This document shows, piece by piece, positions 20,823-53,667 of a stretch of DNA of 53,684 nt. The DNA lies in contig CAZFBE010000003.1 of the NCBI GenBank assembly GCA_964517115.1, forward strand, positions 1 through 53,684. Reading direction: 5' to 3'. Positions within the stretch are counted from its first letter, which is position 1. Every line of letters starts with the position of its first letter. Source of the DNA: an uncultured bacterium. GTDB taxonomy: Bacteria; UBP7; UBA6624. Both the position numbers and the translations under genes were made by a program. The notes under the pieces were generated by a model, which saw nothing but the letters and a program-made list of their open reading frames with translations, made no database searches and had not been told where the DNA came from.

Positions 20823-21857
20823 ATGTTTGATGTTGTCGTTGTTGGCCTAGGCCCAAATGGGCTGTCTGTTTTAAGTGAACTCAATAAGCATTCTTTAAAC
20901 GTGATTGGATTAGACAAAGGGGAAATTTGTAATCATATAAAAAAATACCCAAAAGACATGATTTTTTTTTCAACTGCTGAAAAACTTACATTGGATGAGT
21001 TTCCAATGGGTTCAGGGGATGGGTCAAATCCAAGCTTAAAGGATGCATGTGATTATTATGAGTCTTTTGCAAATAGGAATAATTTTGAAGTTTTAACTTC
21101 TTCAAAAGTTGAAAAAATTTCAGGAAATGATAATGATTTTGTTCTACATCTAAGTGAAGGCAGAAGCATTTGTTCAAAAAAAATTGTTTTGACAACAGGC
21201 ATATATTCAAATCCAAATCATTTAAATCTTGAAGGAGAAAATGAGTCAAATATTAGTCATTATTATTCAGGATCTGAGAATCTCGGTGATAAAAATGTGT
21301 TGGTTGTTGGGGCAGGCAATTCCGCAGTTGAAGCGGCTATAGATCTTAGTGAAAACAATAAAGTGGTTTTGGTTTTCAGAAAGGAAGGCTTAGATAGAAA
21401 GAAGATAAAAAGTTGGATTTATCCAAAATTTATGGATCTTGTAAATTTAGGAAAAATAGAAGTTATTAACAATTCTTCTTTGACCTCTTTGGCAAATTCT
21501 GAAGCTGCTATCAGGACAGAAAAATTTGCTGAGGTTTTATTTCATCCGGGTAGCAGTAGAAAAATCCCAAAACCAAAAAAAATTATTTCAAAATCTAACT
21601 TAAAATTCGATTACTGCTTTCTTTTGACTGGATACAAGCCTGATAAAAAATTCCTAATTGAAGGATGTGGCTTAAATCTCGAGGGAGAACTTGAAATCCC
21701 AAAGCATAATTCACAAAATTATGAAACTACTGTAAAAGGTGTTTATGTTGCAGGTGCATTAGTTGAAGGAATGAATAGCCATCGTGTTTTTATAGAAAAT
21801 GGCAGGTTGCATGGAAGCCCAATAGCAAAAGATATTTATGAAAAACTCAAAAATTAG
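20823..21857 (+). CDS. ypdA: YpdA-family FAD oxidoreductase (putative bacillithiol disulfide reductase)
   Basis: VVGLGPNG, FFSTAEKL, SHYY, VGAGNSAVEAA, LLTGY and VFIENGRLH. Confidence 0.85.
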   Translation: MFDVVVVGLGPNGLSVLSELNKHSLNVIGLDKGEICNHIKKYPKDMIFFSTAEKLTLDEFPMGSGDGSNPSLKDACDYYESFANRNNFEVLTSSKVEKISGNDNDFVLHLSEGRSICSKKIVLTTGIYSNPNHLNLEGENESNISHYYSGSENLGDKNVLVVGAGNSAVEAAIDLSENNKVVLVFRKEGLDRKKIKSWIYPKFMDLVNLGKIEVINNSSLTSLANSEAAIRTEKFAEVLFHPGSSRKIPKPKKIISKSNLKFDYCFLLTGYKPDKKFLIEGCGLNLEGELEIPKHNSQNYETTVKGVYVAGALVEGMNSHRVFIENGRLHGSPIAKDIYEKLKN

Positions 21858-23958
21858 GTTTTATTTAAATGATTTTTCGATAAGTGTTTTATTGGTTCTT
21901 TTGCAGCATTTCCCTTTTTTCTTAAAAAGATACCCTATCAATGGAGATGATTTAGAGTTCGGACTGGCCTTCACGAGGGTCTTTTATCAGCAAGTAGAGA
22001 ATTTTTCATGGGGAATTAGTTCTATTAATGGGTATTTTCCATTGGTTGCTGAAGGGCAAATGGGTTTTTTTCATCCTTTTAGGTGGCTTATCTATCTTTT
22101 GCCTCCATGGCCTTCGTCTGATAATGTTTTAGGAATTGCTCAGGAATATGTTCTTTTGATGCTTTTTTGCAATTTTTTAATGTGTTATGGAATGGTTTTT
22201 CTTCTGAAGTCCAAAGGCTTGAAAGGTTGGAGTCTTTGGATTCCTGTTTTGCTTTTTTGCAATTATGGTTTTCATCAATCTCAATCTACAAATATTAATT
22301 TAATTCTCTCAAGTTGCATTTTGCCATGGGCAGCTTTTTGTATTGATAGTATTTTTTTAAAGATCTCAAAAGAAAAGTTTCCCAAAAAGGAAATTCTTTG
22401 GCTTCTTTTCCTGCTAGCCTCTTCTTTTTTGGCAGGGCAACCTCAAGGAAGCATGATTGTTCTCTTTATTTTGCTAATTTACATTTTTTCTTTTAGTCCA
22501 AAGGCTAGGGCTAAAGTTTTTAAAATCTTCTTTTTTGCAATAATTGGAAGTTTCTTGCTTGCCTCCCCCCAACTTATATCAACTTTTTCTTTATCTAACT
22601 ATTCTTTGAGGGATGAATCTTTTTGGGGTAGCCAGGGTGGAATTGAATTAGTAACATTTTTAAATGGATTTTTTCCATTATTGGGTTTGGATAATATTGC
22701 TTCATACGACCCAGTAGCTTCATCTTATTTGTCTAGTTTATGGCCTTTGTTTTTATTTTATTTATTTTTCAAATTCAAGCCAGATTTTAAAAATAATACA
22801 TATTTAATAGGCATATTTTCATCTATATTTTTCTCCTGGGGTCCTGGCTATGGTTTGTTGGTTAAGGTCATTCCTTTCCTAGGGTCTTTTAGGGATTTTC
22901 ATAGATTCATGCTTGGAGCTTTATTTTTCTTTTGTTTATATTTGGCAAATTTGCTAATGATGAAAAAAATAAAATTCAGCAAGAAGGAAGCAATTATTTC
23001 TTTTGTTTTGTTTTGTTTTGTTTTTATTTTTGTTTCAGACTCTGTATCAATTAAATCTTATTTGCATTTTGTTTTACCTTTGGCTTTTTTACTTAGTTTA
23101 AGCTCAAAGAGAATCGCTAAAAACTCTTATCTTCTAGTTGGAATTTTTTTGATTCTGGAGACTTCTTTAGGTATATTTTGGCGTTGGAATGTTAGGTTTT
23201 ATGAATATTTACCACATGAAGAAATTCAATTAGTTTCTAATGAAGATTGTCCTCAAAAAGGAACTTCGATTTGGTTTCTTGATACTTATTCTGAAAGCCT
23301 CAAGCAAGAAAGTATAAATATGAAAAAACCTTTTGCTGCTTATCTTGGAAGCCCAAATGGCTATCTTTGGGATGATCCAATTTTTTCTAATTGTAAAAAT
23401 AAACCTTTTAGGTTCCAGGTAAACTCTCCACTTCAGTCCCTTTGGGCAAATCAGTTTCAAGATTTTTTTATCCCATCAACAGGAATGGAACATCCAACTA
23501 TTTCAGATTTGATTAAGTTAAGTGAAATTTGGTCTAGAACGAAGTTGGAGATTGATTCAGAGCCTGAGGTTTACCTGGTTGCGGGTGAAACTTTTTACAG
23601 GTATAAAAGAAAAATTGTAGATTTTGATAAATCTAATTATTTTCCTAAGGAAAATTTGCAATATTCAGGTCAAGTTAACGAGGCAGTTATTTTGGCTAAT
23701 CTTTTAACAGGAGATATTAGGAATTTTCTTGATATAAACAAAAAAGAAATCAAGAATGGGATTCACTTTGTTCCAGCTTGGTGGTATCCTGGATGGGAAA
23801 GCCAGGGGGAGAGTCTTTTTAGGGTAGGGTATTCTTTTTTAGGGTATTCCGAGGAATTTGGGGATTATGAATACAAACTTCCAGGATTTCCTTTTTCGTT
23901 TTATTTGAGTATATCAACATTTTTTTTAATTTTTGTTTTTCTTTTTTTTAAGATTTAG
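21838..23958 (+). CDS. Multi-pass membrane protein, YfhO-like (GT-C-type glycosyltransferase candidate)
   Basis: GQMGFFHP, LAGQPQ and SPQLISTF resemble YfhO-like motifs; more than 10 TM segments, a large external domain and a final TM helix. Confidence 0.6.
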   Translation: MKNSKIRFYLNDFSISVLLVLLQHFPFFLKRYPINGDDLEFGLAFTRVFYQQVENFSWGISSINGYFPLVAEGQMGFFHPFRWLIYLLPPWPSSDNVLGIAQEYVLLMLFCNFLMCYGMVFLLKSKGLKGWSLWIPVLLFCNYGFHQSQSTNINLILSSCILPWAAFCIDSIFLKISKEKFPKKEILWLLFLLASSFLAGQPQGSMIVLFILLIYIFSFSPKARAKVFKIFFFAIIGSFLLASPQLISTFSLSNYSLRDESFWGSQGGIELVTFLNGFFPLLGLDNIASYDPVASSYLSSLWPLFLFYLFFKFKPDFKNNTYLIGIFSSIFFSWGPGYGLLVKVIPFLGSFRDFHRFMLGALFFFCLYLANLLMMKKIKFSKKEAIISFVLFCFVFIFVSDSVSIKSYLHFVLPLAFLLSLSSKRIAKNSYLLVGIFLILETSLGIFWRWNVRFYEYLPHEEIQLVSNEDCPQKGTSIWFLDTYSESLKQESINMKKPFAAYLGSPNGYLWDDPIFSNCKNKPFRFQVNSPLQSLWANQFQDFFIPSTGMEHPTISDLIKLSEIWSRTKLEIDSEPEVYLVAGETFYRYKRKIVDFDKSNYFPKENLQYSGQVNEAVILANLLTGDIRNFLDINKKEIKNGIHFVPAWWYPGWESQGESLFRVGYSFLGYSEEFGDYEYKLPGFPFSFYLSISTFFLIFVFLFFKI

Positions 23959-26486: not shown

Positions 26487-26507
26487 TAGAATTTTATGAG
26501 GTGGAGG
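26487..26507 (+). promoter_or_regulatory. Putative -10 element TAGAAT (26487-26492) and SD GGAGG (26503-26507) for GH20
   Basis: The SD lies 9 nt (a T9 run) before the in-frame ATG at 26517. Confidence 0.55.
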
Positions 26508-26516
26508 TTTTTTTTT

Positions 26517-28193
26517 ATGTATTCGTTTATTCTTTATTTTCTTTTTTTTGTTGACATGTTTAAAGAGGATTTTTCAATCATTCCAAGACCGAATGAAATT
26601 TCATTCTCAGACGAAGAGTTTTCTTTTGATGAAGATGTTAAATTTTGGGTTTGGGGAGGCAGGGCCTCCATGGAGTGGAAAGTTGCTCACGCTGAAGAAA
26701 GGAAAATAACAGAAGATGCTTTGGGTTATTTTTTAGATATTTTAAATATTGACTCAGAGATTTCTTTTGGCGGACACTGGTTGGGTGACCCAAAACCGCT
26801 TTCACTAAAAGGCCAGGAGTTTACACTGTCGGATCAGGAAAAACATAAGTTTGTTTATTTTGGTTGGATAGACGATGAATCTATTGGAAATGAAGGATAT
26901 ATTATTAATATCAATTCGCGCTATGTAGAAATTTTGTCAAACTCTCCTCAAGGTTTTTTTTACGCTACACAAACTATAAGGCAATTGCTCCCTTTAAAAG
27001 GTTGTCCCGCTGAAAGTTGCGTTCTGCCAGGTTTGAAGATCAAGGACAGCCCAAGATTCAAATGGAGAGGAATGCATCTGGATGTTGGAAGGCATTTTTT
27101 TAGCGTTGATGAAATAAAGAAGTTTTTAGACTTGTTGGCATTCTACAAATTCAATAATTTTCATTGGCATCTCACGGAAGATCAGGGTTGGAGGATTGAG
27201 ATTAAGAAATGGCCAAGACTTACTGATTTTGGTAGTTGTAGAGAAGAGTCTCCGAAAAAAGGAAACAGGAATGTTGGTGACGGTGTTGAGTATTGCGGTT
27301 TCTACACACAATCTGAAGTGAGGAATATTGTCAAATATGCTGAGAAATTATTTATAAACATTGTTCCTGAGATTGAAATTCCCGGACATTCTTCAGCTGC
27401 AATTGCTTCATATCCAGAACTTGGAAATCCAGGTGCTTCTGACAAGGTCATGACAAGGTGGGGTGTTTCAAATGGGGTTTATAACATCAAGAAAGAAACA
27501 TTTGATTTTTTGGAGGATGTACTTTCTGAGGTTATGGATCTTTTTCCTTCGGAGTTTATTCATATTGGAGGTGATGAGGCTCCAAAGGGACCTTGGAAAA
27601 ACAATCCGGATGTTCAGGAATTTATAAAACAAGAGGATCTTGGAGATGAGCATGGTTTGCAAAGTTGGTATATTAAGAAAATAGAATCTTTTCTTAATTC
27701 AAATGGCAGGCGTTTGATTGGGTGGGATGAGATTCAAGAGGGAGGACTTGCCCCAAATGCAGCGATGATGGTTTGGCGAAGTTGGCAATATGGAATAGAT
27801 GCTGCTAATAAAGGTCATGATATTGTTATGTCCCCAACATCTCATTCATATTTTGATTATTACCAGGGAGATCCAGAAACTGAACCGGAAGCTATTGGAG
27901 GATATCTGCCATTGAAAAAAGTTTACTCTTTTGAACCTGTTCCTGAAGAATTGCAAGGAGAGAAGGTTGATCGAGTCTTGGGGGCTCAAGGTAATCTGTG
28001 GACTGAGTACATCTATGATTGGGACAAACTAATGTATATGGCCTTTCCCCGGACTGCTGCAATGGCTGAAGTTGTTTGGACCTCCCCAGAGAAAAAAGAT
28101 TACGATAGTTTTTTAAAAAGATGGGAGCGCAGTTTGCCAAAACTTGATTCCATGGGTATTAGATATAGAAATTTATCGGAAGATGATTTTTAA
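26517..28193 (+). CDS. Beta-N-acetylhexosaminidase, GH20 family (alternative start 26496)
   Basis: RGMHLDVGRHF, FHWHLTEDQGWRIEI, VPEIEIPGHS, HIGGDE catalytic pair and GAQGNLWTEY; hydrophobic N-terminus. Confidence 0.96.
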   Translation: MYSFILYFLFFVDMFKEDFSIIPRPNEISFSDEEFSFDEDVKFWVWGGRASMEWKVAHAEERKITEDALGYFLDILNIDSEISFGGHWLGDPKPLSLKGQEFTLSDQEKHKFVYFGWIDDESIGNEGYIININSRYVEILSNSPQGFFYATQTIRQLLPLKGCPAESCVLPGLKIKDSPRFKWRGMHLDVGRHFFSVDEIKKFLDLLAFYKFNNFHWHLTEDQGWRIEIKKWPRLTDFGSCREESPKKGNRNVGDGVEYCGFYTQSEVRNIVKYAEKLFINIVPEIEIPGHSSAAIASYPELGNPGASDKVMTRWGVSNGVYNIKKETFDFLEDVLSEVMDLFPSEFIHIGGDEAPKGPWKNNPDVQEFIKQEDLGDEHGLQSWYIKKIESFLNSNGRRLIGWDEIQEGGLAPNAAMMVWRSWQYGIDAANKGHDIVMSPTSHSYFDYYQGDPETEPEAIGGYLPLKKVYSFEPVPEELQGEKVDRVLGAQGNLWTEYIYDWDKLMYMAFPRTAAMAEVVWTSPEKKDYDSFLKRWERSLPKLDSMGIRYRNLSEDDF

Positions 28194-29251
28194 TACTGTG
28201 GATTCCATTTTTTTCCAAGGATGCATTTTTCTTTAGCTCCTGTCAATTGTGGTTGGCTGATTTTTACATTTTTACTTGCCATTTTTGCCAGAAAGGCAAA
28301 CAGATAAGCCTCTCTTGAATCTTGAAGAGGGTCGATTTCAACTTTTATATCCTCTCCTAACTCCAATTGAAAAAGTTCCATTAGCCCTTTGTTAAAAATA
28401 CCACCACCTGAAAAATATGCTACAGATGGTTTTTTTTTGCAATTTTTTTTAATCCATTTTTTCAACTCTAAAACTATTCCATTTGCAGCTGAAGAAAGTT
28501 GATTTTCGATTTTCATTTTTCCAATCTCTGATAAAGTTTTTTTAAGTTCATTTTCCCATTCTGAAACATGGGTGCTTTTTGGAGGTTCTTTGTCATGAAA
28601 ACTGTTTCCAAATATTTGTAAGTTTCTTTTTTCAATAGTTCCTCGAAATGTAAGTTTTCCATGATTGTCAAAATTCATGTTTTCTTTTTTGCAGATTGAA
28701 TCGAGAAGATAATTGCAGACAGAGATGTCAGAGGAGATCATTTCTTTTTCAGATATATAGGTTGCGTTCATGATTCCTCCTAAATTGACTCTTAACACGT
28801 TCCCTTTTGTCCATTGATGTTCGTCTATTATGGATGCAAGAGGTGCTCCTTGTCCTCCCATTTTTATGTCGTTTGATCTGAAGTCACTCCAAACTGTCAT
28901 TCCTGTAATGTTTGAAATTAACTGGGGGTCACCAACCTGAAGCGTCCATCCAAGTTCTGGCTTATGTGCTGCTGTTTGTCCATGGAAACCTATTCCTTTT
29001 ATTTTTTCTTCTTTCATTATTTTTAATGCTGTTTTTGCAAAGTGATCTCCCATTTTCTTTTCCAGGGATATGTCTTTTTGAAGAGGGGTTGGATTCTTTT
29101 TTTGAAAATTTTGAAATTCTTTTTTCAACTTGGTTGGCCAAGGGTTGTTTATTTTCTTGATTATTTTTGGTTTTTTTTCAAAATTTATTAAAGCAGCTGA
29201 AGCAGCATCCATGCTGGTTCCTGAGAGCAACCCAATCCAAAGTTCATTCAT
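28190..29251 (-). CDS. anmK: Anhydro-N-acetylmuramic acid kinase
   Basis: GLLSGTSMD, GFHGQT, DFRSNDIKMGGQGAPL and NLGGIMN; overlaps murQ. Confidence 0.92.
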   Translation of the reverse strand: MNELWIGLLSGTSMDAASAALINFEKKPKIIKKINNPWPTKLKKEFQNFQKKNPTPLQKDISLEKKMGDHFAKTALKIMKEEKIKGIGFHGQTAAHKPELGWTLQVGDPQLISNITGMTVWSDFRSNDIKMGGQGAPLASIIDEHQWTKGNVLRVNLGGIMNATYISEKEMISSDISVCNYLLDSICKKENMNFDNHGKLTFRGTIEKRNLQIFGNSFHDKEPPKSTHVSEWENELKKTLSEIGKMKIENQLSSAANGIVLELKKWIKKNCKKKPSVAYFSGGGIFNKGLMELFQLELGEDIKVEIDPLQDSREAYLFAFLAKMASKNVKISQPQLTGAKEKCILGKKWNPQY

Positions 29252-30086
29252 TTTGGAGTATTTCTTCTAAAGTTTTGTTTTTTAAAAGGTTTTTTGCTTC
29301 TTTTGGACTGATTTTTAATTTTTTTATCAGTATTGATTTTTCAAGGCTCCATTTATTTTTTTTTAAGGTTTCTTCAGATTCTTTTTCGTTCATTCTAGTT
29401 ATTTTGCTAAGTATTCCTATAGCTCTATTTTTAAGTTTTTTATTTGTTGGTTTTATTTTTATCATTTTTCTCTCAAATACATTTCCAAGAATTACGAAAG
29501 AGGTTGTTGATATCGCAGTTAGGACAGACCTGGTTATGTTTCCTGAAGCCATTCTTGTACTTCCTTCAAGCCATTCTTTTTGAACAGGTGCTTCGATACA
29601 TATATCAGAATTTTTTTTAATTTTGCTATTTTCCTTGTTCACGATTGAAACCGTTTTACATCCAATTTTTTTTGCCTTTTTTAAAAAAGTATTTGTCCAA
29701 GGCGTGGATCCACTTGCACTTAAACCTATTACAAGGTCTTTTTTTTGGAGTTTGATTTTTTTTATGACTTCACATGCGTTACCTGAATCATCCTCACTTC
29801 CTTCAACAGCTTCATAAAATGCTTTTTTCCCTCCTGCAATAAGAGATTGAACCTTGGAAGGTTTTAATCCGAAGGTTGGAGGGATCTCAGCTGCATCCAA
29901 TGCGCCAATTCTTCCACTTGTCCCTGCTCCAACATAGAAGATTCTTCCATTTTTTTTGATTGAATCAACATATAGTTCAACAGCTTTTGAAATTTTTGAA
30001 GTCTTTTTTTCTGCTGATGCTCTATATTTGTTTTCATTCTGGAATATCTCTTTTAACGTCTTGTTTATTTTTTTATTTAAATTCAA
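29244..30086 (-). CDS. murQ: N-acetylmuramic acid 6-phosphate etherase (TTG start)
   Basis: GAGTSGRIGALDAAEIPPTF, AVEGSEDD, GLSASGSTP and GSTRM. Confidence 0.93.
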   Translation of the reverse strand: MNLNKKINKTLKEIFQNENKYRASAEKKTSKISKAVELYVDSIKKNGRIFYVGAGTSGRIGALDAAEIPPTFGLKPSKVQSLIAGGKKAFYEAVEGSEDDSGNACEVIKKIKLQKKDLVIGLSASGSTPWTNTFLKKAKKIGCKTVSIVNKENSKIKKNSDICIEAPVQKEWLEGSTRMASGNITRSVLTAISTTSFVILGNVFERKMIKIKPTNKKLKNRAIGILSKITRMNEKESEETLKKNKWSLEKSILIKKLKISPKEAKNLLKNKTLEEILQNE

Positions 30087-44194: not shown

Positions 44195-44983
44195 TTATTC
44201 TTTTGGAGAAATGAAAGCTAGGGGTATTAATTCTTTTTTTGAGTTCCATGCACCTATTTCTTTTCCATTATGTTTAAAATAAAATTCTTCTATCTCTGGG
44301 TAAGAGTCATCTCGTAAAATAAAATTTAATGTTGATATTTTCCCACCATTTTTTTCAATATTTTTATTCGGAAATAAAATGATTGTTATTTTCCCAAGTG
44401 AGGAATTGTCTGTAATGGCGTACCAGTTATTATGATTGTTTTTTTCAATCCCATTGAAAACAATGTTTTCCAAAATCATTTTTTCAGAAGGGTAGTTGAT
44501 TTGGATGCTTGCAAGTCCAAATGAATCTAAATTTATTGTTTTCAAAAAAACTTTATATTTTTCTCCAGATTTTTCTTTTTCTGGTTTTTGGTGTTCAAGA
44601 AAGAGTTTTTTGTTCGTTAGGTCTATTTCAGAGGTTTCTTCTTTGTAGCCATCTGAATCTTTTACTGTAACTTTTATATTAACTTTTTCTGAATCTTTGT
44701 TTGCCTTCCATTTTATAAGGGGTGTATTTTTTCCTTCTAGTATTTCTGCCCCTGTAACCTCCCATGAAAAAATCAATCTATCAAAGTCAGGATCAGAAGC
44801 TATTGCTCTTGTTATAGCTTCTCCTTCAAAAGAAACAAAACGAGGAGTTGTTTCCATTTTCTCAACAACTGGAGGTCTGTTTTGTGTATTTGCTGCACTT
44901 GAAGGTATTCTTGCGCTTGTTGGTTGAGATCCGGAACAGGAGTTTATTGTTGATAGTAAAATGAAAATTAAAATTCTTTTCAA
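44195..44983 (-). CDS. Lipoprotein with a PKD/Ig-like domain and a possible cohesin-like domain (TTG start)
   Basis: Lipobox-like MKRILIFILLSTINS-C; NRPP...DPDFDRLIFSWEV...VTVKDSDG (PKD-like); beta-rich C-terminus. Confidence 0.65.
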   Translation of the reverse strand: MKRILIFILLSTINSCSGSQPTSARIPSSAANTQNRPPVVEKMETTPRFVSFEGEAITRAIASDPDFDRLIFSWEVTGAEILEGKNTPLIKWKANKDSEKVNIKVTVKDSDGYKEETSEIDLTNKKLFLEHQKPEKEKSGEKYKVFLKTINLDSFGLASIQINYPSEKMILENIVFNGIEKNNHNNWYAITDNSSLGKITIILFPNKNIEKNGGKISTLNFILRDDSYPEIEEFYFKHNGKEIGAWNSKKELIPLAFISPKE

Positions 44984-46071
44984 GCGGTTTTCTCCTGTTT
45001 TTTAGAATCGTCTTCTTGGCTTTTTCCTTTTTTGACTAAATAATAAATAGCAAAAATAAAACCTAAAAGAACCCATGAAAAACTTAAGTTTTTATTTTTT
45101 GAACCAAGTTCATTTGGCCCAATTACTTCAAAAGTCACAGGGACAGAGTTAAGGTGGATTTTGTTTGTTATATCCAGTGTTTTCAAATCTGCCCCAAATA
45201 TAAATGGAGCTTTTACTGTTGCCCAGACTTTATTGTTAACAACTCTTAGATTTGTTGGAGCCATGTCGAATTTTATTTTTCCAACAATTTCCCCACTTTC
45301 AGTTTCTGCAATATGAACGAATCTTGTTCTCATGTCTGCTGCTAAAACTAACTTGCTGTCATCTGAGAAAGTGACTGCCCTTGGAGCATCTCCAACTGGT
45401 ATAGAGAAGATAAGCTCATCTGCATTTTTGTCATATATTTGAACAGTATCGGTTTGAGTGAGTGCAAGAGCGATGTATTCCCCATTGGGGCTTACTGCCA
45501 TTGCTGCAGGTGAGTTTGAAAGAACCTTTTCTTTTTTTATAGTCTTTTCTTTTGTGTCAATCAGAAAAAGCATTGCTGTATTTGCCCTTGTCGCATAAAG
45601 GACATTCCCATTTGGATGTATTTCGATATTGTTGATTGTGTTCCCAACAGGTATCGAATCTATAAGAGTTCCTGAATCTACAGAAAATATACTTACATCA
45701 TTTGCTTGAAGTGTTTCTGGATTTGCTACAGTTGCATATATTATTTCACCTGAAGGAGGGCTGGTTAAGTGAAGAGGGAATCCCTTTGTTGGAATTTCAC
45801 TCTCAAGGGTGCCTATGTTTAAATCAACAACAGATATTACCCCTCCATGTTGATTTGCTATGAATCCTAAGCCTTTTTTAGGAAGCAATGTCAAGTCATT
45901 CAATCCTTCACCTGCCATAAACCTATTGCTAACCTTTTCATCTAAGGTGTCAACTATTACAACTTCATCAGGCCTTTCGTTAACCAGGTATAAAAGAGTG
46001 CTTTCATTGTTTACCTTCCCACAAGAACAAAGGAGCAGTGAGGTAAGGAAAATTGTTAATATTTTTTTCAT
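44980..46071 (-). CDS. YVTN/YncE-type beta-propeller lipoprotein with a C-terminal TM anchor
   Basis: Lipobox LLLCS-C; repeats such as IPVGDAPRAVTFSDD and AVSPNGEY; C-terminal SWVLLGFIFAIYYLVKK. Confidence 0.8.
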   Translation of the reverse strand: MKKILTIFLTSLLLCSCGKVNNESTLLYLVNERPDEVVIVDTLDEKVSNRFMAGEGLNDLTLLPKKGLGFIANQHGGVISVVDLNIGTLESEIPTKGFPLHLTSPPSGEIIYATVANPETLQANDVSIFSVDSGTLIDSIPVGNTINNIEIHPNGNVLYATRANTAMLFLIDTKEKTIKKEKVLSNSPAAMAVSPNGEYIALALTQTDTVQIYDKNADELIFSIPVGDAPRAVTFSDDSKLVLAADMRTRFVHIAETESGEIVGKIKFDMAPTNLRVVNNKVWATVKAPFIFGADLKTLDITNKIHLNSVPVTFEVIGPNELGSKNKNLSFSWVLLGFIFAIYYLVKKGKSQEDDSKKQEKTA

Positions 46072-46072
46072 T

Positions 46073-46966
46073 TTATTTGGAACCCTCCCTAATTTTAAAA
46101 TAATTCAAACCAGTCCATGGGCTAGTTGGGTTTTTTTCTGTTATTTTTAGCACTAAAACTCCTATTGCGATTATTAATATCGAAACTATTTGCGTTAAGG
46201 TCAATATTGAAAATCCAATTTCAGGATTTTCAAAGAGTTTCCAGTAGATCGGATTGTTTCTGAAAGGTTCTTCTATAACTGACCTTAATAATGAATACCA
46301 TATCAGCCATTGCCCTGTTAGCCATCCTTCATGTTTTGGCTGCCTTGTACCAATCCAAAGTATTAAAAAAAGAATCAATCCAACCATCATTCCATAAACT
46401 TGGGAAAGGTGCACTGGGCCTCTTATAAGTTCCATTGAACAATTTGAAATTGTTTCTCCTGGATTTGGACAAAAGCTAGAAAAGCCATATGCTCTTTCTG
46501 GCCATGTGTAACCAATAGGTAAATTTGTCAATCTTCCTGCTGCATCATCGCCATTCATAAAATTTCCGATTCTTCCAAAAATTATTCCAATTGCTGAAGG
46601 GTAGGTGAGAAGGTCAAGAACCCTTGTTAACTTTATGTTTCTTTTTTTGGTCCAAAACCACCAGTATAAAATTCCAAAACCTATTGCTCCATGAAAAGAA
46701 AGCCCACCTTTCCATATTTGTAGACTGTCTAGGAGGTTGTCATATTTTGATAAATTAGTCAAAACATAGACAAGCCTTGCTCCAATTATCCCCCATACAA
46801 CAGCCCAAAAAAGGCCATCTTCAAATTCTTTTTTATCAAGGCCAGCCTTTTTGTTATTTTCTATCCATCTAGCTGACCACCACCATGAAATAAAAACTGT
46901 TGAAGCCATACAGATTCCATACCATCTAATTGAGAAATCTCCTATTGAAAAAAATTCTGGATTCAT
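46073..46966 (-). CDS. lgt: Prolipoprotein diacylglyceryl transferase
   Basis: IRWYG, IIGARLVYV, IWKGGLSFHGA and GRIGNFMNG. Confidence 0.95.
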   Translation of the reverse strand: MNPEFFSIGDFSIRWYGICMASTVFISWWWSARWIENNKKAGLDKKEFEDGLFWAVVWGIIGARLVYVLTNLSKYDNLLDSLQIWKGGLSFHGAIGFGILYWWFWTKKRNIKLTRVLDLLTYPSAIGIIFGRIGNFMNGDDAAGRLTNLPIGYTWPERAYGFSSFCPNPGETISNCSMELIRGPVHLSQVYGMMVGLILFLILWIGTRQPKHEGWLTGQWLIWYSLLRSVIEEPFRNNPIYWKLFENPEIGFSILTLTQIVSILIIAIGVLVLKITEKNPTSPWTGLNYFKIREGSK

Positions 46967-47038
46967 TTAAATGAAATTTTTTTGATTTCCGGGATTCATG
47001 ATTTGTCCAATTGTTTCAATTTTTATTTTTTTTCTCAC
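46967..47038 (-). CDS. Candidate 23-aa basic micro-ORF (MRKKIKIETIGQIMNPGNQKNFI) bridging ftsK and lgt
   Basis: Hand-translated. Its GTG overlaps the ftsK stop (GTGA) and its TAA (46969-46967) directly abuts the lgt ATG. No homology evidence. Confidence 0.42.
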   Translation of the reverse strand: MRKKIKIETIGQIMNPGNQKNFI

Positions 47039-49038
47039 AAGTCAACCATCCATCCTTTTTTTCCTGCTGATGTATTTGGATCTTGATGCACCCAGTTCAA
47101 TTGTTCCATTATCATCATCATCCTAGAGGCTTTATTGTATCCAATTCCAAAAATTCTTTGAAGCTGACTAACGCTAATTGCATCTTCATCTTTTATCCTT
47201 TGTCTTATGTCAGCTATCAATTTACGATCAGTGCTTGACATGCCTTCTAAAATATCATCACTTATTTCATCTATTGGAGTGATTACTTCCTCTTCAACAG
47301 ATTCATCATATTTTGCTTCTCCATAATTTTTTATAAGATAACTTAATACATTTTCTATTTCTTCTGTTTCTACTAAAGGCGCTTGACACCTTATTAACTC
47401 AGGATGTGTTGGACTGTCAAAATACAAATCTCCTCTTCCAAGTAGGTTTTCAGCTCCTCCTCTTCCAAAAACGGTAATTGAGTCTGATCTTGTTCCAAGC
47501 CTAAAACTAACTTTTCCAGGGAGGTTTGCTTTCACTGACCCATCAAGTTTTTTAGAATCAGGTCTTTGCATTGTTGCAATTAGATGAACTCCTGCAGCTC
47601 TTGCTCTTTCTGACAGGTCCGATAATGATTCAATAACTCTATTTTTAGATGTAATCAAAAGAGCAGATAATTCTTCTAGAACTATAACTATATAAGGAAG
47701 TTTTTTCTTTGATTTTTTATTGTATTCTTCAAGATTTTTTGTTTTTGATTCTTCTAGTAGTTCATATCTTCTATCTACTTCTTTTCTAGCCCAATCTAAT
47801 GCATTTAATGCTGGGTCAGGTGTTGAAACTATAGGAACTAAAAGGTGTGGGATGTCTTTATAAAGTGTCAATTCAACTTTTTTCATATCAGCAAGTATCA
47901 ATTTCAAATCTTCAGGACTTTTCCTGTATATTAGGTTTAATAAAAGCGTATTTATAAAAACAGATTTTCCTGATTGTGTTGCTCCTGCAACTAACATATG
48001 TGGCAATGCTGAAAGGTCAACATTTAAAAGTTTTCCATCAACTTGTGCTCCCATTACAAAATTTAAACCATCTGATTTTTTCTGATTCTCTATAACTTCA
48101 CTTAACCTAAGTATCGATTTGTTTTTTTGAGGTATTTCAACAGCTATTGTGCTTTTGCCAATGACAGGAGCTTCAATTCTCACCTTCCCTATGCTTGCTA
48201 TTGCTACTGCAATGTTTTCCGCAGAACTTCTTATTTTTGGAAGATTTGCTGATGCAGGAACCCTGAATTCAAATCTAATCACGGACCTTCCTTGAGCACA
48301 GCTTTCAAAAAATGCATCTGCTCCTGCGCAATCTTTAAGAGTTTTTATTATCGTTTCTGCCATATGGTTTATTTCTTTTTTGCCCATTTCAATTACGGCT
48401 TCTGGTTTTTTTAAAAGCGTCATTGGGATGTTGTAATTTTTGTCATTTTTAAGTTGTTTTCTTGGCTTTTTAACCTCTTTCTTTTTAAAGGTTTTTATTA
48501 TTTTTTTAACAGTTTTTTTTCTAGCATCTTTTTTTATCAGGTCATTTGTAGTTACATTGGATTCTTTTAGAGATTTGAAATCCTGTTCAAAATCTCCTGA
48601 ATCGAAATCCTGTTCAAAATCTCCTTTTTTCGAAATGTCTTTAAACATATTCTTTATATGTTCATCTAAACAAAAATAAATAATACCTATTGATATAAAA
48701 GCAAAAATATCCAAAACGAGAATTCCTTCGTTACCAATTATTCCTTCAAAGAAAGAATAGATGTTTTTACTCCATGTTCCACCCATTTCATATTTTTCTG
48801 CAAAAAGAAAAACCCAGGGGATAAAAAGCAACCTTGCTTTTTTGTTTTTTTGAAAAGCTGATGAAATGGGATGGTATAAAAGTAAAGGGTATATCCAAGA
48901 ATTTTCACCCCATAAGTTTTCAAAAAACACTCTATAGCTTTCTGCAAGCGGGTCAAAAATTTGTGTAGTTGTTGCAAACATATGGAATAGTATTGAGAAA
49001 ATTAAAACAACTTCAAAATTCAATTTTATATTTTTCAT
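47035..49038 (-). CDS. ftsK: FtsK/SpoIIIE DNA translocase with variant motor motifs
   Basis: N-terminal TMs, alpha domain VRIEAPV.GK..IAVEIP, HMLVAGATQSGKS, RAAGVHLI..QRP and gamma domain SVSQLQR..IGYNKA. Confidence 0.92.
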   Translation of the reverse strand: MKNIKLNFEVVLIFSILFHMFATTTQIFDPLAESYRVFFENLWGENSWIYPLLLYHPISSAFQKNKKARLLFIPWVFLFAEKYEMGGTWSKNIYSFFEGIIGNEGILVLDIFAFISIGIIYFCLDEHIKNMFKDISKKGDFEQDFDSGDFEQDFKSLKESNVTTNDLIKKDARKKTVKKIIKTFKKKEVKKPRKQLKNDKNYNIPMTLLKKPEAVIEMGKKEINHMAETIIKTLKDCAGADAFFESCAQGRSVIRFEFRVPASANLPKIRSSAENIAVAIASIGKVRIEAPVIGKSTIAVEIPQKNKSILRLSEVIENQKKSDGLNFVMGAQVDGKLLNVDLSALPHMLVAGATQSGKSVFINTLLLNLIYRKSPEDLKLILADMKKVELTLYKDIPHLLVPIVSTPDPALNALDWARKEVDRRYELLEESKTKNLEEYNKKSKKKLPYIVIVLEELSALLITSKNRVIESLSDLSERARAAGVHLIATMQRPDSKKLDGSVKANLPGKVSFRLGTRSDSITVFGRGGAENLLGRGDLYFDSPTHPELIRCQAPLVETEEIENVLSYLIKNYGEAKYDESVEEEVITPIDEISDDILEGMSSTDRKLIADIRQRIKDEDAISVSQLQRIFGIGYNKASRMMMIMEQLNWVHQDPNTSAGKKGWMVDL
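48577..48625 (-). repeat. 22-bp direct repeat (period 27) in the FtsK linker, encoding GDFEQDF twice
   Basis: GAAATCCTGTTCAAAATCTCCT at 48577-48598 and 48604-48625. Confidence 0.92.
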
Positions 49039-49820
49039 GGTTTAATTATTATGACTGAAATGAACCCCAGAACAAGACAGTAGATTGCAAATGGCTCTAG
49101 TTTGTTGTTTTTTACATAATTTAACATAAATTTCATTGCCCATATTCCAGAAACAAAGGATATTAAAAAACCGAGTAGGGAAGGTCCTGGATTTGTTGAT
49201 ATGTATGAATTTATATTTTCTAGTTTTAGCAAGCTGGCACCTATTATTACTGGAATTGAAAGCAAGAATGAAAATTTAACTGATTCATATCTGTTCATCC
49301 CGATGAGCAAACCTCCAGCTATCGTTGCTCCAGATCGGCTGACCCCAGGTATTATTGCAATTGCTTGAAGAAGTCCAATTGCAATCCAGTCTAAAAAAGT
49401 GGTGTGTCTTAGGTTTTTGAAAGATTTTGATTTCCTTAATTCTGCATACACAAGAATAAATGCTGTAAAAACCAGACCTATTGCTACACTTCCCGCATCT
49501 TTAAAGCTTGATTCAAAGAGGCTTTCGAAAGAGAGGTAAAAAAGAACCGTGGCCAAACTTGTTATAAAAAGTGCATGAAACTCAATATTTTTAAATGGAT
49601 GTTTTGAAAGTATCATTTGCCCAAGTTTTTTCCCATTAACTACTAAAAGGCTGGATAGGGTTCCAAGATGTAGTATTGTTAAAATTGCTGTATTGCTTTC
49701 TGGATTAATTCCAAAAAAATCTCTTATCAAGACAAGATGTCCAGTTGATGAAATTGGGAGAAATTCAGTGACCCCTTGTATTAGCCCTAAAATCAAATGC
49801 TCAATCCAGGTATTATTCAA
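49035..49820 (-). CDS. uppP: Undecaprenyl-diphosphate phosphatase
   Basis: QGVTEFLPISSTGHL, HLGT, PGVSRSGATI and FSFLLSIP. Confidence 0.96.
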   Translation of the reverse strand: MNNTWIEHLILGLIQGVTEFLPISSTGHLVLIRDFFGINPESNTAILTILHLGTLSSLLVVNGKKLGQMILSKHPFKNIEFHALFITSLATVLFYLSFESLFESSFKDAGSVAIGLVFTAFILVYAELRKSKSFKNLRHTTFLDWIAIGLLQAIAIIPGVSRSGATIAGGLLIGMNRYESVKFSFLLSIPVIIGASLLKLENINSYISTNPGPSLLGFLISFVSGIWAMKFMLNYVKNNKLEPFAIYCLVLGFISVIIIKP

Positions 49821-50400
49821 AAAGGATCCTTCCTAATCTAAGAATGTTTGTGCCTTCAGATACAGCAACTTTCCAGTCTTGTGTTGTCCCCATTGAAATA
49901 AATGGATTTTTAAAATTTTTTTCTGCTAGTTTTTTCACTTCCCTAAACCATAGTCTATTTTCTTCTGGTTCTTGTGTGTATGGTGGCATTGTCATCAATC
50001 CTCCAAGGGGAACTTCTGGAGCATCTTTTTTTGCTTTGTTTAGAAAATGCTTTAGTTCATTTGTGTCTATCCCTGATTTTGACTCGTCGCCCAAATTGAC
50101 TTGAATTAAGCATATCGGATAAGGGGGTCCTAACTTGTGTATAGCAAGAATTTCTTTTATTCTTGATACTGAATGGATAAATTTAAAATTTTTAGATATC
50201 TTGTTCAATTTATTCATTTGTAGCCTGCCTATAAAATGCCAAATTATTTCTTTATCTTTCAATATTTTTTTTCTTTTGAGGTGTTCTTGAAGTCTATTCT
50301 CTCCAAAGTCTTTGATTCCTGAAGAGCGTATTTTTTTGAGGTCATCTTCGAACCTATTCTTTACAGCGGCAACAACTTTTATATTTTTAGGAATTTCCAT
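49813..50400 (-). CDS. yggS: PLP homeostasis protein (YggS/YlmE), N-terminally short
   Basis: FGENRLQE, WHFIGRLQMNK, LIQVN, GLMTMPP, SMG and LRLGR. Confidence 0.92.
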   Translation of the reverse strand: MEIPKNIKVVAAVKNRFEDDLKKIRSSGIKDFGENRLQEHLKRKKILKDKEIIWHFIGRLQMNKLNKISKNFKFIHSVSRIKEILAIHKLGPPYPICLIQVNLGDESKSGIDTNELKHFLNKAKKDAPEVPLGGLMTMPPYTQEPEENRLWFREVKKLAEKNFKNPFISMGTTQDWKVAVSEGTNILRLGRILFE

Positions 50401-51399
50401 TTATAAAACCTTTTGTTTGCTGCTCAGCATTAAATAAACTTCAAGCATTTTTTGGTTCATCGTGTTTATTGAAATGTTTACCTTTCCTTGTCTTCCATCC
50501 ATTGAAGGTGACAGTCTTGAAGAAATATTTTCTATTATCTCCTGATGCTCATAAGCAGTGATTGGAGGTCCGTTGATCCAACATAATGCTCTATGGGGTG
50601 GGTTGTTTATAGGTAAAGGCCTTAAGAATGTATCTTGAAAGGAATCTTCTAGAGCTGTATTTATTTTGATTTCTTCTGTTGATTTTCCCTGACCAAAGTG
50701 TATCTGTCCAGCATTTCTAAAAAATTCAAGAATGTTTGCTTTGTCCAGATTTATAGTGTTGTAATTATTTTTAATAATTAAATTTATTATTTCAAGCAAT
50801 GAAGAATCTGCTTTATGCAATGCATCTTCGAAGGTTCCTGTGAAATTTGAACAAAGTTTATCATTTGAAATTATTAGATATGAATCTAGGTTTTCTTTTG
50901 AATTTAATAATGAATCTTCAATTATTTCTATCGATTCTGGGTTTTCGCTAATCATGGGTTGTACAAAAAAACCTATTTTTATTGTTTTTCTACCCAGTTG
51001 ATCCACACAGTTGTTTAGTTGTTTTAATGTCCATGGGAGCAATGCTGAACCACTTCCATAACCCAGACAAGATATAAAAATAATAACATCCGTTGTCTCA
51101 CTATTTTCAATTTTTTTATTTTCCATTTCATCTTCAAGCAAGTATTCTTTTAGGCCATAGTAATCACAATCAGTTCCTTTGCCACCATATCTTTGCGTAG
51201 CTATTTCGTATTTATTAATCTCTTCTGAAAGGTTTTTTAAACTGGATACAGAAGTGTCTATTGCATCTTTAAACATGTTTTTTGAGAGCCTGCTATTGAT
51301 TCTCTTGAGTATTTTGCATCCTGCTCCACCTAGGGCAATTACCCTTACTTTCATATCAAAGTTATCTAATTTTTGATTTCCAAAAAGGTTTTCACTCAT
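50401..51399 (-). CDS. ftsZ: Highly divergent FtsZ/tubulin-family protein in the ftsZ position
   Basis: Colinear with FtsZ: VIALGGAG, IDT, GGKGT, LGYGSGSA..P, DSYLIISNDKL and INLDKAN; located between murB and yggS. Confidence 0.8.
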   Translation of the reverse strand: MSENLFGNQKLDNFDMKVRVIALGGAGCKILKRINSRLSKNMFKDAIDTSVSSLKNLSEEINKYEIATQRYGGKGTDCDYYGLKEYLLEDEMENKKIENSETTDVIIFISCLGYGSGSALLPWTLKQLNNCVDQLGRKTIKIGFFVQPMISENPESIEIIEDSLLNSKENLDSYLIISNDKLCSNFTGTFEDALHKADSSLLEIINLIIKNNYNTINLDKANILEFFRNAGQIHFGQGKSTEEIKINTALEDSFQDTFLRPLPINNPPHRALCWINGPPITAYEHQEIIENISSRLSPSMDGRQGKVNISINTMNQKMLEVYLMLSSKQKVL

Positions 51400-52261
51400 A
51401 TTTAAACTTTCCTATTTTTTCTACTTCGGCAGTTAAGGATATTCCCGTTTTTTCAAACACATTAGTTTTAATTACTTGAATCATTTCAAACACTTCTTTT
51501 GCCTTTGCACCACCTTCGTTTATTATGAAATTCCCATGTTTTTTTGAAATTTTTAAGTTTTTCATCTTAAACCCTTTCAAGCCACATGAATCTATTATTT
51601 TTCCAGCAGAATCATTTGGAGGATTTTTAAAAATACATCCAACAGAACTGCCTTTTGGTTGTGTTGAGAGCCTGTATTTCATATATTTCTCATTTCCCTC
51701 TTTTATTTCCTGTTTTGTTCTTTTTTTCAATTTCAATTTTGCAGAAAGAATAACAAATTTTTCTTTCAACGAACAGTATCTATACCCATAATCAAATTCA
51801 TTTCTTTTTAGGGTTTTTAATTGATATGTTTTTTTGTCTATAACGTCAACGGATTCAAGAATGTCTAAGATATTCATTTCACTAGGACCGCAATTTGTTG
51901 CGATCCAGCCACCTATTGTTCCTGGAAGTCCTGAAAAAGGCTCTAAGCCAGAAAGTGATTTTTTTTCCGCGTATTTAATTGCAGATGACCCAAAAGCTCC
52001 AGCTCCACAGATTAAAAATTTTTCTTGATTTTTTATTTTTGAAAAATTTCCATTTAATTTAATTATTCCATCTACTCCATCATCTGAAATTAGGATGTTG
52101 CTCCCTCCGCCCAATAGGTACCAGTTTTTTTCATTTTGAAGAATTTTGATTGCTTCTTTTAGATCTTTTACAGATGAGGCAATCAATAGTTTTTTTATAT
52201 TTCCTCCAATCCTGAAGGTACTTAACTTGCCCCCGTTGAAATTTTCATACTTCTTCAACAT
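51392..52261 (-). CDS. murB: UDP-N-acetylenolpyruvoylglucosamine reductase (Cys-type active site)
   Basis: TFRIGG, GGGSNIL, PGTIGG, FDYGYR, QP..SVGCIFKNP and KHGNFIIN. Confidence 0.95.
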   Translation of the reverse strand: MLKKYENFNGGKLSTFRIGGNIKKLLIASSVKDLKEAIKILQNEKNWYLLGGGSNILISDDGVDGIIKLNGNFSKIKNQEKFLICGAGAFGSSAIKYAEKKSLSGLEPFSGLPGTIGGWIATNCGPSEMNILDILESVDVIDKKTYQLKTLKRNEFDYGYRYCSLKEKFVILSAKLKLKKRTKQEIKEGNEKYMKYRLSTQPKGSSVGCIFKNPPNDSAGKIIDSCGLKGFKMKNLKISKKHGNFIINEGGAKAKEVFEMIQVIKTNVFEKTGISLTAEVEKIGKFKYE

Positions 52262-53667
52262 TAATTTATTTGGGAGTAGTTGAAAGTCTCCTGTGCAATT
52301 TTATGTATATTTCCAGCTCCTAAAAATATAACAACATCACTTTCTTTTTCAGTTAAATCCTGCACAAGGTTTTCTTCTGTTGTCAACTTTATATTTTCTA
52401 TGCTGTTCACAATTAGACTGCTATCAATTCCTTTGATTTTTTTCTCTCCAGCTGAATAAACTGGAAGTATCAGTTTTGAGTTGAATTGAAATGAATTTAA
52501 CACTTCTGAAAATTCTCGATGATTTTTTTCAAGCCTTGTATACCTATGTGGTTCAAAGACTATTGTTACTTTTTTGTTCTTGTATTTGGCATCTATGCTT
52601 TTTAATGTTTCTCTTAAGGCTGTCGGATGGTGAGCATAGTCTGAAAAAATTTCACCCAGCAGGGTTTCACCAATTTTTTCCATTCTTCTTCCAACCCCTC
52701 TAAAAGACCTTAGGCCTTCATAGATTTCATTTTCATCCATGCCTAAGCTCAAACAAGCTCCAATTGCAGATAAGACATTTCTTGCATTATGTTGTCCTGA
52801 CATTGGCAAGAAGAATTCCCCCAATGGCAACCCATAATAAAGGACCCTGAGGAGCATTCCGTTTTCGCCTTCATGAAGGATCTTGCCTTCAATCAATGCT
52901 CTATCAGACATGTTTCCAAATCCGAGTTCCTGATCTTCTTTCAGTAGTGCTGTAGTTATCATGCTACCAGGTCTGATTGAGTTATTTTCAAGTATTTTTG
53001 ATACACCTAAACCTTTTTCTCTAGGGAGAATGAAATTGCATTTCTCATCACGGCTTGTTAGGTAGTCTGCAATATATTTTTCCAAATTTTCCATAGTTTT
53101 ATATGTGTCCATATGATCGCAATCTAGATTGTTAATAATTAGAGTTGTTGGATCAAGATTTACAAATTCCACATTGCTTTCATCGGCTTCAGCAATAAAA
53201 TAATCACCATCTCCAACTTTATAGCCAGCATCCCAGTTGAGCATATTTCCTCCAACAATTACATTTGGATCTCTTCCAGATTTGTAAATTAGCCAAGATA
53301 TAAGCGATGTTGTGGTTGTTTTTCCATGGGTTCCAGTAATTGCAATCCTTTTCTTTGCTTTGTTGAATTCTTTTGCGAGAAAGACTGGTCTATGCAAAGC
53401 TGGTATCTTTCTTTCTCTTGCCCCAATAAGCTCTACATTGTCTTCTGGAATGGCATTTGAATAGACAATCAAATTGCAATTTCTAGGTATATTGCTCTTC
53501 GAGTGGTTTAGTTTGCAATCAAAACCAAGATCATTTAGTTTTTTTACAGATTTTTCTGAAACATCTGAACCAGATACGTTGTACCCTTTTTCTGCACACC
53601 ATCTTGCCAACGGCTCCATTCCACTTCCGCCCATTGCTATAAAGTGTATATTTTTTTGACTATCCAT
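52261..53667 (-). CDS. murC: UDP-N-acetylmuramate--L-alanine ligase
   Basis: HFIAMGGSGM, GSD, GTHGKTTTT, EADES, HNARN, GVGRRME, DYAHHPT and FEPHRYTR. Confidence 0.96.
   Translation of the reverse strand: MDSQKNIHFIAMGGSGMEPLARWCAEKGYNVSGSDVSEKSVKKLNDLGFDCKLNHSKSNIPRNCNLIVYSNAIPEDNVELIGARERKIPALHRPVFLAKEFNKAKKRIAITGTHGKTTTTSLISWLIYKSGRDPNVIVGGNMLNWDAGYKVGDGDYFIAEADESNVEFVNLDPTTLIINNLDCDHMDTYKTMENLEKYIADYLTSRDEKCNFILPREKGLGVSKILENNSIRPGSMITTALLKEDQELGFGNMSDRALIEGKILHEGENGMLLRVLYYGLPLGEFFLPMSGQHNARNVLSAIGACLSLGMDENEIYEGLRSFRGVGRRMEKIGETLLGEIFSDYAHHPTALRETLKSIDAKYKNKKVTIVFEPHRYTRLEKNHREFSEVLNSFQFNSKLILPVYSAGEKKIKGIDSSLIVNSIENIKLTTEENLVQDLTEKESDVVIFLGAGNIHKIAQETFNYSQIN

Follow-up and report, generated by a model that had tools for sequence, protein, structure and literature searches.

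In bacterial FtsZ the C-terminal peptide, the T4 signature and the catalytic residues of the T7 loop are regarded as near-universal, and the distribution of septal wall synthesis is attributed to GTP-driven treadmilling. Besides its normal FtsZ, magnetotactic Magnetospirillum has an extra copy encoded in a magnetosome operon: FtsZm, a truncated paralog without the C-terminal tail in which the canonical GTPase motifs are retained. Divergent FtsZs have been described from Verrucomicrobiota and second, divergent copies from some bacteria of the Candidate Phyla Radiation (CPR), and in bacteria with two ftsZ genes the additional copy sits outside the division and cell wall (dcw) cluster in published surveys (PMC9871819). 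Planctomycetota and Chlamydiota divide without FtsZ and have eroded dcw clusters (PMC5147048; PMC12283558). Here we analyzed a stretch of 53,684 nt from an uncultured bacterium (contig CAZFBE010000003.1, hereafter the window), in which a gene of 332 amino acids lies between murB and yggS. An earlier note, made from the sequence alone, had read this gene as an ancestral ftsZ that is decaying or repurposed within a collapsed dcw cluster.

The gene encodes a very derived FtsZ variant that is new and unannotated in public records: NCBI lists its product as "hypothetical protein", and no prior description of such an FtsZ family was found in the literature searched. The two-domain FtsZ core and the ancestral locus are kept, and strong purifying selection is concentrated on the nucleotide loops and on the T7-H8 surface. 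On balance we are inclined to consider the gene as the lineage's own FtsZ ortholog, heavily remodeled and functional, which probably forms a slow or non-hydrolyzing polymer with a new mode of anchoring. The genes of the locus all lie on the minus strand between positions 46073 and 53667, and all neighbors were identified by Pfam and NCBIfam:

52261-53667, minus strand: murC (TIGR01082, 351 bits, cut-off 335)
51392-52261, minus strand: murB (NF010480, 259 bits; TIGR00179, 207 bits)
50401-51399, minus strand: derived FtsZ ortholog, 332 amino acids, complete core without C-terminal linker or peptide (PF00091 and FtsZ-fold matches)
49813-50400, minus strand: yggS/ylmE, pyridoxal phosphate-binding protein (TIGR00044, 128 bits, cut-off 106)
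49035-49820, minus strand: uppP, undecaprenyl-diphosphate phosphatase (Pfam BacA, 229 bits)
47035-49038, minus strand: ftsK, DNA translocase with N-terminal membrane domain (Pfam FtsK_alpha, FtsK_SpoIIIE, FtsK_gamma)
46073-46966, minus strand: lgt, final gene of the conserved string (Pfam LGT, 186 bits)

The order from murC to uppP and the tight junctions pointed out in the earlier note agree with the coordinates and with the family assignments. murC and murB overlap by 1 nt, and the murB stop and the start of the FtsZ-like gene by 8 nt; the start codon inside this overlap has GGAAAG ahead of it. The gap between the FtsZ-like stop and the yggS start is 0 nt, whereas yggS and uppP overlap by 8 nt and uppP and ftsK by 4 nt. 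The position of ftsK within the string is also kept in a sister lineage. RNA and tRNA scans of the window gave no matches. Open reading frames (ORFs) antisense to the genes were treated as spurious, since each lies wholly inside a gene conserved on the opposite strand.

The assignment of the protein to the FtsZ family was examined at the level of profile, fold and gene position. The Pfam model Tubulin (PF00091) matches residues 18-183 with 42.1 bits (cut-off 33, E 1.5e-10). The ftsZ equivalog TIGR00065 aligns over residues 11-301 and reaches 52.4 bits against a cut-off of 295.2; the Pfam scan of the 332-residue protein gave no match to FtsZ_C. With the single sequence the closest solved relative is Aquifex FtsZ (2r6r, E 5.5e-14). 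A profile of the family finds FtsZ structures in the PDB at E 2e-24 to 1e-15, compared to 8e-10 to 0.014 for CetZ, 0.12 for TubZ and 0.22 for Asgard tubulin. Membership in CetZ, TubZ or tubulin/BtubAB was rejected because the family profile is closer to FtsZ. AlphaFold2 (AF2), run with an alignment of 67 sequences, predicts a complete two-domain FtsZ core ending in strand S10 (predicted local distance difference test score, pLDDT, 89.6; predicted template modeling score, pTM, 0.90), and the best 50 Foldseek matches of this model are all FtsZ, with template modeling (TM) scores of 0.7-0.8 over 320-330 columns. In the window, as well as in six related loci spanning three depths of divergence, the gene is placed where the dcw cluster ends on its 3' side, in the order murC-murB-ftsZ-like-yggS. 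Since FtsZ is the best match by hidden Markov model, PDB profile and fold, and since the gene holds this position with yggS next to it in three lineages, its orthology to FtsZ is supported. The earlier identification of a tubulin-fold protein and ancestral ftsZ is supported by these sequence matches and by the synteny.

An exhaustive HMMER search of 1.84 billion cluster representatives returned 701 matches at E <=0.001, but only three full-length clusters of the family (P0002, P0004 and P0006); the matches ranking after these are ordinary FtsZs, with E values no better than 1e-19. The three lineages differ in GC content (33%, 53% and 74%) and share 29-37% identity in the FtsZ-like protein. The lineage of the window, a marine clade, recurs in Tara Oceans metagenome samples. 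All three share the gene order (mraZ/rsmH), an ORF of 37 amino acids, murE, murF, mraY, murD, murC and murB, followed by ftsZ-like, yggS, uppP, ftsK and lgt, with uvrA and uvrC further on. No ftsL, ftsI, ftsW, murG, ddl, ftsQ or ftsA was found within the cluster in any of the three lineages. Because the same genes are missing in all of them, the collapse of the cluster dates back to the ancestor of the entire group, and its extent exceeds what is visible in the window: the collapse recognized around murC and murB is real, and it extends further upstream, where ftsL, ftsI, ftsW and murG are also absent.

The position in the cluster has to be considered against the possibility that the gene is a neofunctionalized copy, with a normal ftsZ elsewhere (with ftsA or sepF) dividing the cell and the dcw copy serving another conserved role such as organizing peptidoglycan precursor synthesis or recycling. 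The extent of change in active site and tail is what would be expected once a copy is freed from its role in division, second divergent FtsZs are known, e.g. in CPR (PMC9871819), and tail-less, core-only FtsZs (P0007, P0010) are among the nearest matches. The part of the genome covered amounts to ~92 kb (the window, L001, L011/L012 and L019), which leaves room for another copy; within it no other tubulin-family gene and no FtsA, SepF, FtsQ, MreB or Min gene was found. However, extra copies in the surveys lie outside dcw (PMC9871819), while here the ancestral slot is occupied in three of three lineages, which favors orthology of the dcw-resident gene. The marine clade is also gene-dense with overlaps of 0-8 nt, and paralogs would be uncommon in such genomes. 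Loss of ftsA, ftsQ, ftsW and ftsI together from the cluster suggests that the whole divisome neighborhood changed. We consider a neofunctionalized copy unlikely, although it deserves serious attention.

Two further genes of the cluster deserve a description. A single-transmembrane ORF of 37/38 amino acids (MNNNRKPGTLDFFFELLVPVFFLVILTGYFIVSTLVV) occupies the ftsL slot between mraZ/rsmH and murE, upstream of murC. The two higher-GC lineages alone carry an orphan gene of 257/273 amino acids, located after murB and before the ftsZ-like gene. The positions of both genes, outside the window, are:

L003 2483-2596 and L015 1874-1990, also present in L001, L006 and L018-L023: ORF of 37/38 amino acids
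L007 6370-7143 and L015 9241-10062: orphan gene of 257/273 amino acids, the two copies 30% identical to each other

Between lineages whose Mur enzymes are ~40% identical the small ORF reaches ~76% identity, and no other gene of the cluster is as well conserved. Family searches gave no match, and a metagenome scan with the peptide returned only the same two lineages. The orphan gene has no match in Pfam, NCBIfam or PDB, and hhalign revealed no resemblance to FtsQ or FtsA of E. coli; no homolog was found in ~85 kb of marine-clade DNA searched, including the corresponding place next to murB. In a 99%-identical contig from a metagenome-assembled genome (MAG), CAZDPU010000001 (L001 4146-5506), murF is represented by two overlapping ORFs of 253 and 213 amino acids, and in L003 and L006 it is intact (453 amino acids); the split is probably an assembly frameshift.

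We determined the motif changes from an alignment with E. coli FtsZ (NC_000913), whose numbering is used for substitutions, and compared them with 61 ordinary FtsZs. Three segments are of particular interest:

51379-51399, minus strand: N-terminal peptide MSENLFG, codons 1-7 (alignment of three lineages)
51043-51063, minus strand: T4 loop, residues 113-119, GYGSGSA replacing GGGTGTG (alignment; invariant in nine marine sequences)
50734-50751, minus strand: T7 loop, residues 217-222, NLDKAN, with E. coli N207 and D209 kept and F210K and D212N substituted

T1 reads GGAGCK, T2 carries N43D and D45S, T3 reads GKGTD including G71D, and T5 reads PMISEN. In T4 the substitutions are G106Y, T108S, T110S and G111A, and the sequence departs from the signature GGGTG[ST]G. 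Each motif change listed in the earlier note is present in this alignment, although A21, C23 and D43 are common natural variants among the 61 ordinary FtsZs. By contrast, Y114, S116, A119, S50, M149 and K220 of the window protein each occur in 0/61, D77 in 1/61 and N222 in 3/61. A natural Asn at D212 ('NLDFSN') was also seen in P0011, an otherwise canonical FtsZ with GGGTG and a C-terminal 'PSFLRRK'; Asn at this position alone is therefore also found in seemingly ordinary FtsZs.

In S. aureus FtsZ the composite active site consists of D46, Q48, G72 and R143 of the lower subunit and N208, D210 and D213 of the upper one (PMC8936486). The corresponding residues of the window protein are S50, S52, D77, S156, N217, D219 and N222, i.e. 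five of seven residues are replaced (D45S, Q47S, G71D, R142S, D212N) and only N207 and D209 are kept. The residues holding the nucleotide are retained: G19, G20, G22, G105, G107, G109, P134, N165, D209 and the Asp/Asn position of H7. Both termini differ from ordinary FtsZs as well. In the alignment and in the AF2 model the chain ends 6 residues past S10, so that linker and C-terminal peptide are indeed missing, as first noticed by eye. The N-terminus carries a motif M-x-[ED]-[NR]-LFG, in which all three lineages agree at M1, L5, F6 and G7 despite an overall identity of only 29-36%. It is predicted to be disordered (residues 1-10 with pLDDT <50), and the aligned ordinary FtsZs are without an LFG-type N-terminal motif.

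The lineages differ in how far these changes have gone. T4 reads GYGSGSA in the marine clade, GGATGSA in P0004 and GGGTGAA in P0006; P0006 keeps GGGTG and the second T7 Asp, P0004 has His at this Asp position, and D45, Q47 and R142 are absent in all three. As the least-derived lineage retains GGGTG and the second T7 Asp but is without a normal tail, D45 and R142, the comparison suggests that the change in anchoring came first and that more of the active site was lost later in the marine clade. The C-terminus of P0006 (L007 ~8100-8146) ends in '...PEPAADIAALA', which MAFFT sets under E. coli 'DYLDIPAFL'; 'ADIAALA' may be what remains of a partner-binding peptide, attached through a very short linker.

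We also assessed selection on the gene. Orthologs with 75-99% amino-acid identity came from six contigs, five of them from GTDB MAGs and one from Tara. The ratio of nonsynonymous to synonymous substitution rates (dN/dS) of the FtsZ-like gene is 0.03-0.10 at dS ~0.7-1.9, and that of murC, murB, ftsK and yggS is 0.07-0.15; purifying selection on the gene is no weaker than on its housekeeping neighbors. Across nine distinct marine-clade sequences 221/332 residues are invariant, all odd motif residues among them. In FtsZ the nucleotide pocket and both faces of the longitudinal interface are formed by the T1, T3-H3, T4-H4, T7-H8 and S8 segments. T7-H8 is the most conserved part of the protein in the marine clade with 18/19 invariant residues, and the other segments have counts of 11/12 (S8), 22/28 (T3-H3), 18/23 (T4-H4) and 16/21 (T1).

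These values bear directly on the earlier title of an eroded FtsZ, i.e. a decaying relic heading for loss. The score against the FtsZ model is indeed very low (52 bits vs 295) and the NCBI label is hypothetical protein. The dN/dS comparison among relatives that the earlier note had proposed nevertheless reveals purifying selection rather than loss. The unusual residues are invariant, T7-H8 and the nucleotide loops are the most conserved regions, and none of the contigs seen, in lineages from 33% to 74% GC, has an interrupted reading frame; length and position are conserved as well. Erosion or decay is thus not borne out, and we regard a relic as highly improbable.

Identity to E. coli FtsZ is 17% for the window protein in the multiple alignment (21% in a pairwise local alignment) and 23-28% for P0006, compared to 36-41% for ordinary FtsZs. 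For the neighboring Mur enzymes the identity to E. coli is 30-36%, although FtsZ usually evolves more slowly than Mur enzymes. FtsZ has therefore gone through a burst of change on the stem of the group, and its rate within the group is now about that of MurB and MurD.

Judging from the conservation of pocket and interface, guanine nucleotide is probably still bound and head-to-tail association probably retained. The canonical hydrolysis machinery seems largely gone: with D45, Q47, G71, R142 and D212 replaced, filaments would turn over slowly or never and would act as a scaffold rather than a treadmilling motor. In E. coli, D212N is GTPase-defective and forms stable polymers (PMC3573117). In S. 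aureus a positive charge at R143 is needed for hydrolysis, and Q48A and R143K give stabilized filaments with a ~6-fold lower GTPase activity (PMC8936486). With the C-terminal peptide absent, the protein cannot be connected to FtsA, ZipA or SepF in the usual way, and as the cluster holds neither ftsA nor ftsQ, it would have to reach the membrane or the wall-synthesis machinery by another route. The best candidate for a replacement docking motif is, speculatively, the disordered N-terminal peptide, whose partner might be FtsK, presumably co-transcribed, or the 37-residue membrane peptide. The repurposed, GTPase-impaired scaffold without classical anchors that the earlier note had put forward is plausible and now better specified.

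The same substitutions can be read differently, as those of a non-polymerizing pseudo-GTPase, a monomeric or dimeric regulator, nucleotide-bound or nucleotide-free, which is kept for protein-protein interaction while division proceeds without FtsZ, for instance driven by MreB/FtsK as in Chlamydiae. Such a protein would accommodate five changed residues out of seven in the composite site and a T4 signature broken by G106Y, as well as the presumed co-transcription of ftsK, and equivalent single changes abolish assembly of S. aureus FtsZ (PMC8936486). It would not readily explain why the T7-H8 surface, which contacts the nucleotide of the next subunit, is the best conserved part of the protein, nor why conservation is also high in the T3 and T4 loops, which lie on the opposite face; this pattern is expected of a head-to-tail interface. 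D209 and N207 are also retained. We consider the pseudo-GTPase quite unlikely.

Several observations nevertheless count against a remodeled, still polymerizing FtsZ ortholog. The alignment behind the confident AF2 model contains mostly ordinary FtsZs, which biases it toward the FtsZ fold, and a family-only alignment of 6 sequences gave a pLDDT of 62.7 with a poor C-terminal domain; the fold assignment thus leans partly on homologous FtsZ sequences. The single changes D46A, R143Q, N208L, D210N and D213N block assembly in S. aureus (PMC8936486), so that we infer polymerization here from interface conservation. G106Y lies in the phosphate loop and could prevent nucleotide binding. The partner proposed for the N-terminal peptide is pure conjecture. 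Finally, there is a modest probability that a canonical FtsZ is encoded elsewhere in the genome, beyond the ~92 kb covered. The most far-reaching version, in which a free-living marine lineage divides with a tail-less FtsZ without canonical GTP hydrolysis as its only tubulin homolog, tethered by its N-terminus to partners other than FtsA and SepF, is put forward as a tentative proposal that we rate as doubtful.

Sites whose changes inactivate FtsZ in model bacteria are here changed, fixed and conserved, and the classical divisome genes have been shed from the dcw cluster. Should the cell have no other FtsZ, the protein would illustrate the degree of rewiring of the division cytoskeleton that is compatible with continued peptidoglycan synthesis, and P0006, P0004 and the marine clade would form a stepwise series for how dependence on FtsZ may be lost, as in Planctomycetota and Chlamydiota. 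A sole tubulin homolog that is tail-less and non-hydrolyzing would represent a naturally occurring intermediate stage between division driven by FtsZ and division independent of it, and would offer a natural test of whether septal wall synthesis needs treadmilling. As pipelines label the protein hypothetical, genomes of this kind would score as 'FtsZ-less' in comparative surveys.

Elsewhere in the window we noticed a peptidoglycan-recycling group (26496-30086), which includes the anmK and murQ genes already recognized in the earlier note, and four ORFs without a significant Pfam family:

26496-28193, plus strand: GH20 beta-N-acetylhexosaminidase
28190-29251, minus strand: anmK
29244-30086, minus strand: murQ
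21838-23958, plus strand: ORF of 706 amino acids
25999-26472, plus strand: ORF of 157 amino acids
36830-37498, minus strand: ORF of 222 amino acids
44195-44983, minus strand: ORF of 262 amino acids

The ORF of 262 amino acids and the adjoining beta-propeller gene (44980-46071) hold their position in the sister lineage (L015). To the left of the window lies a giant PKD-repeat protein of 4144 amino acids (L012 1-1618). Upstream of the cluster the marine clade carries an SLH-domain protein and a type III glutamine synthetase (L019 1460-2125 and 4935-7028). The best matches of UvrA outside the lineage have <=49% identity and are scattered over phyla, and lpxK, lgt and the upstream SLH-domain protein point only to a diderm; the SLH domain and lpxK may bear on outer-membrane tethering and on taxonomy. 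A placement among marine Dadabacteria was considered and not confirmed, since SP4379/PBAU01 does not appear in PMC8115339.

In comparison to canonical FtsZ (TIGR00065; E. coli b0095, S. aureus, Aquifex 2r6r) the window protein shares the two-domain core, the position at the end of dcw and the best sequence and structure matches, and it keeps GGxG of T1, G105/G107/G109, N165, N207 and D209. It differs in its identity of 17-21% to E. coli, in falling short of the equivalog cut-off and the T4 signature, in its conserved N-terminal LFG peptide, and in having neither a tail nor adjoining ftsA and ftsQ. With FtsZm it shares a core-only architecture without the FtsA/ZipA-binding tail; unlike FtsZm, it resides in the dcw slot and has lost the motifs. 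The divergent FtsZs of Verrucomicrobiota and CPR are similarly long-branched and hard to place. P0007, P0008 and P0010 look like such sequences, and P0007 and P0010 are without a C-terminal tail; these nearest matches, however, retain GGGTG and N-x-D-x-A-D, and the family profile reaches them at E 1e-19 or weaker. In this diderm, which still makes peptidoglycan, divisome genes have been stripped from dcw while Mur enzymes are kept, as in Planctomycetota and Chlamydiota. In contrast to those phyla a tubulin-fold gene is present and under selection, and the likeness implies no affiliation with the Planctomycetota-Verrucomicrobiota-Chlamydiota (PVC) group. The positions changed in GTPase-defective mutants (E. 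coli D212N; S. aureus D46A, Q48A, R143K/Q and D213N) are substituted naturally in this lineage. The mutants carry single changes in a normal protein and are non-functional in vivo, whereas this lineage has fixed and conserved several changes together, and this implies that they are co-adapted.

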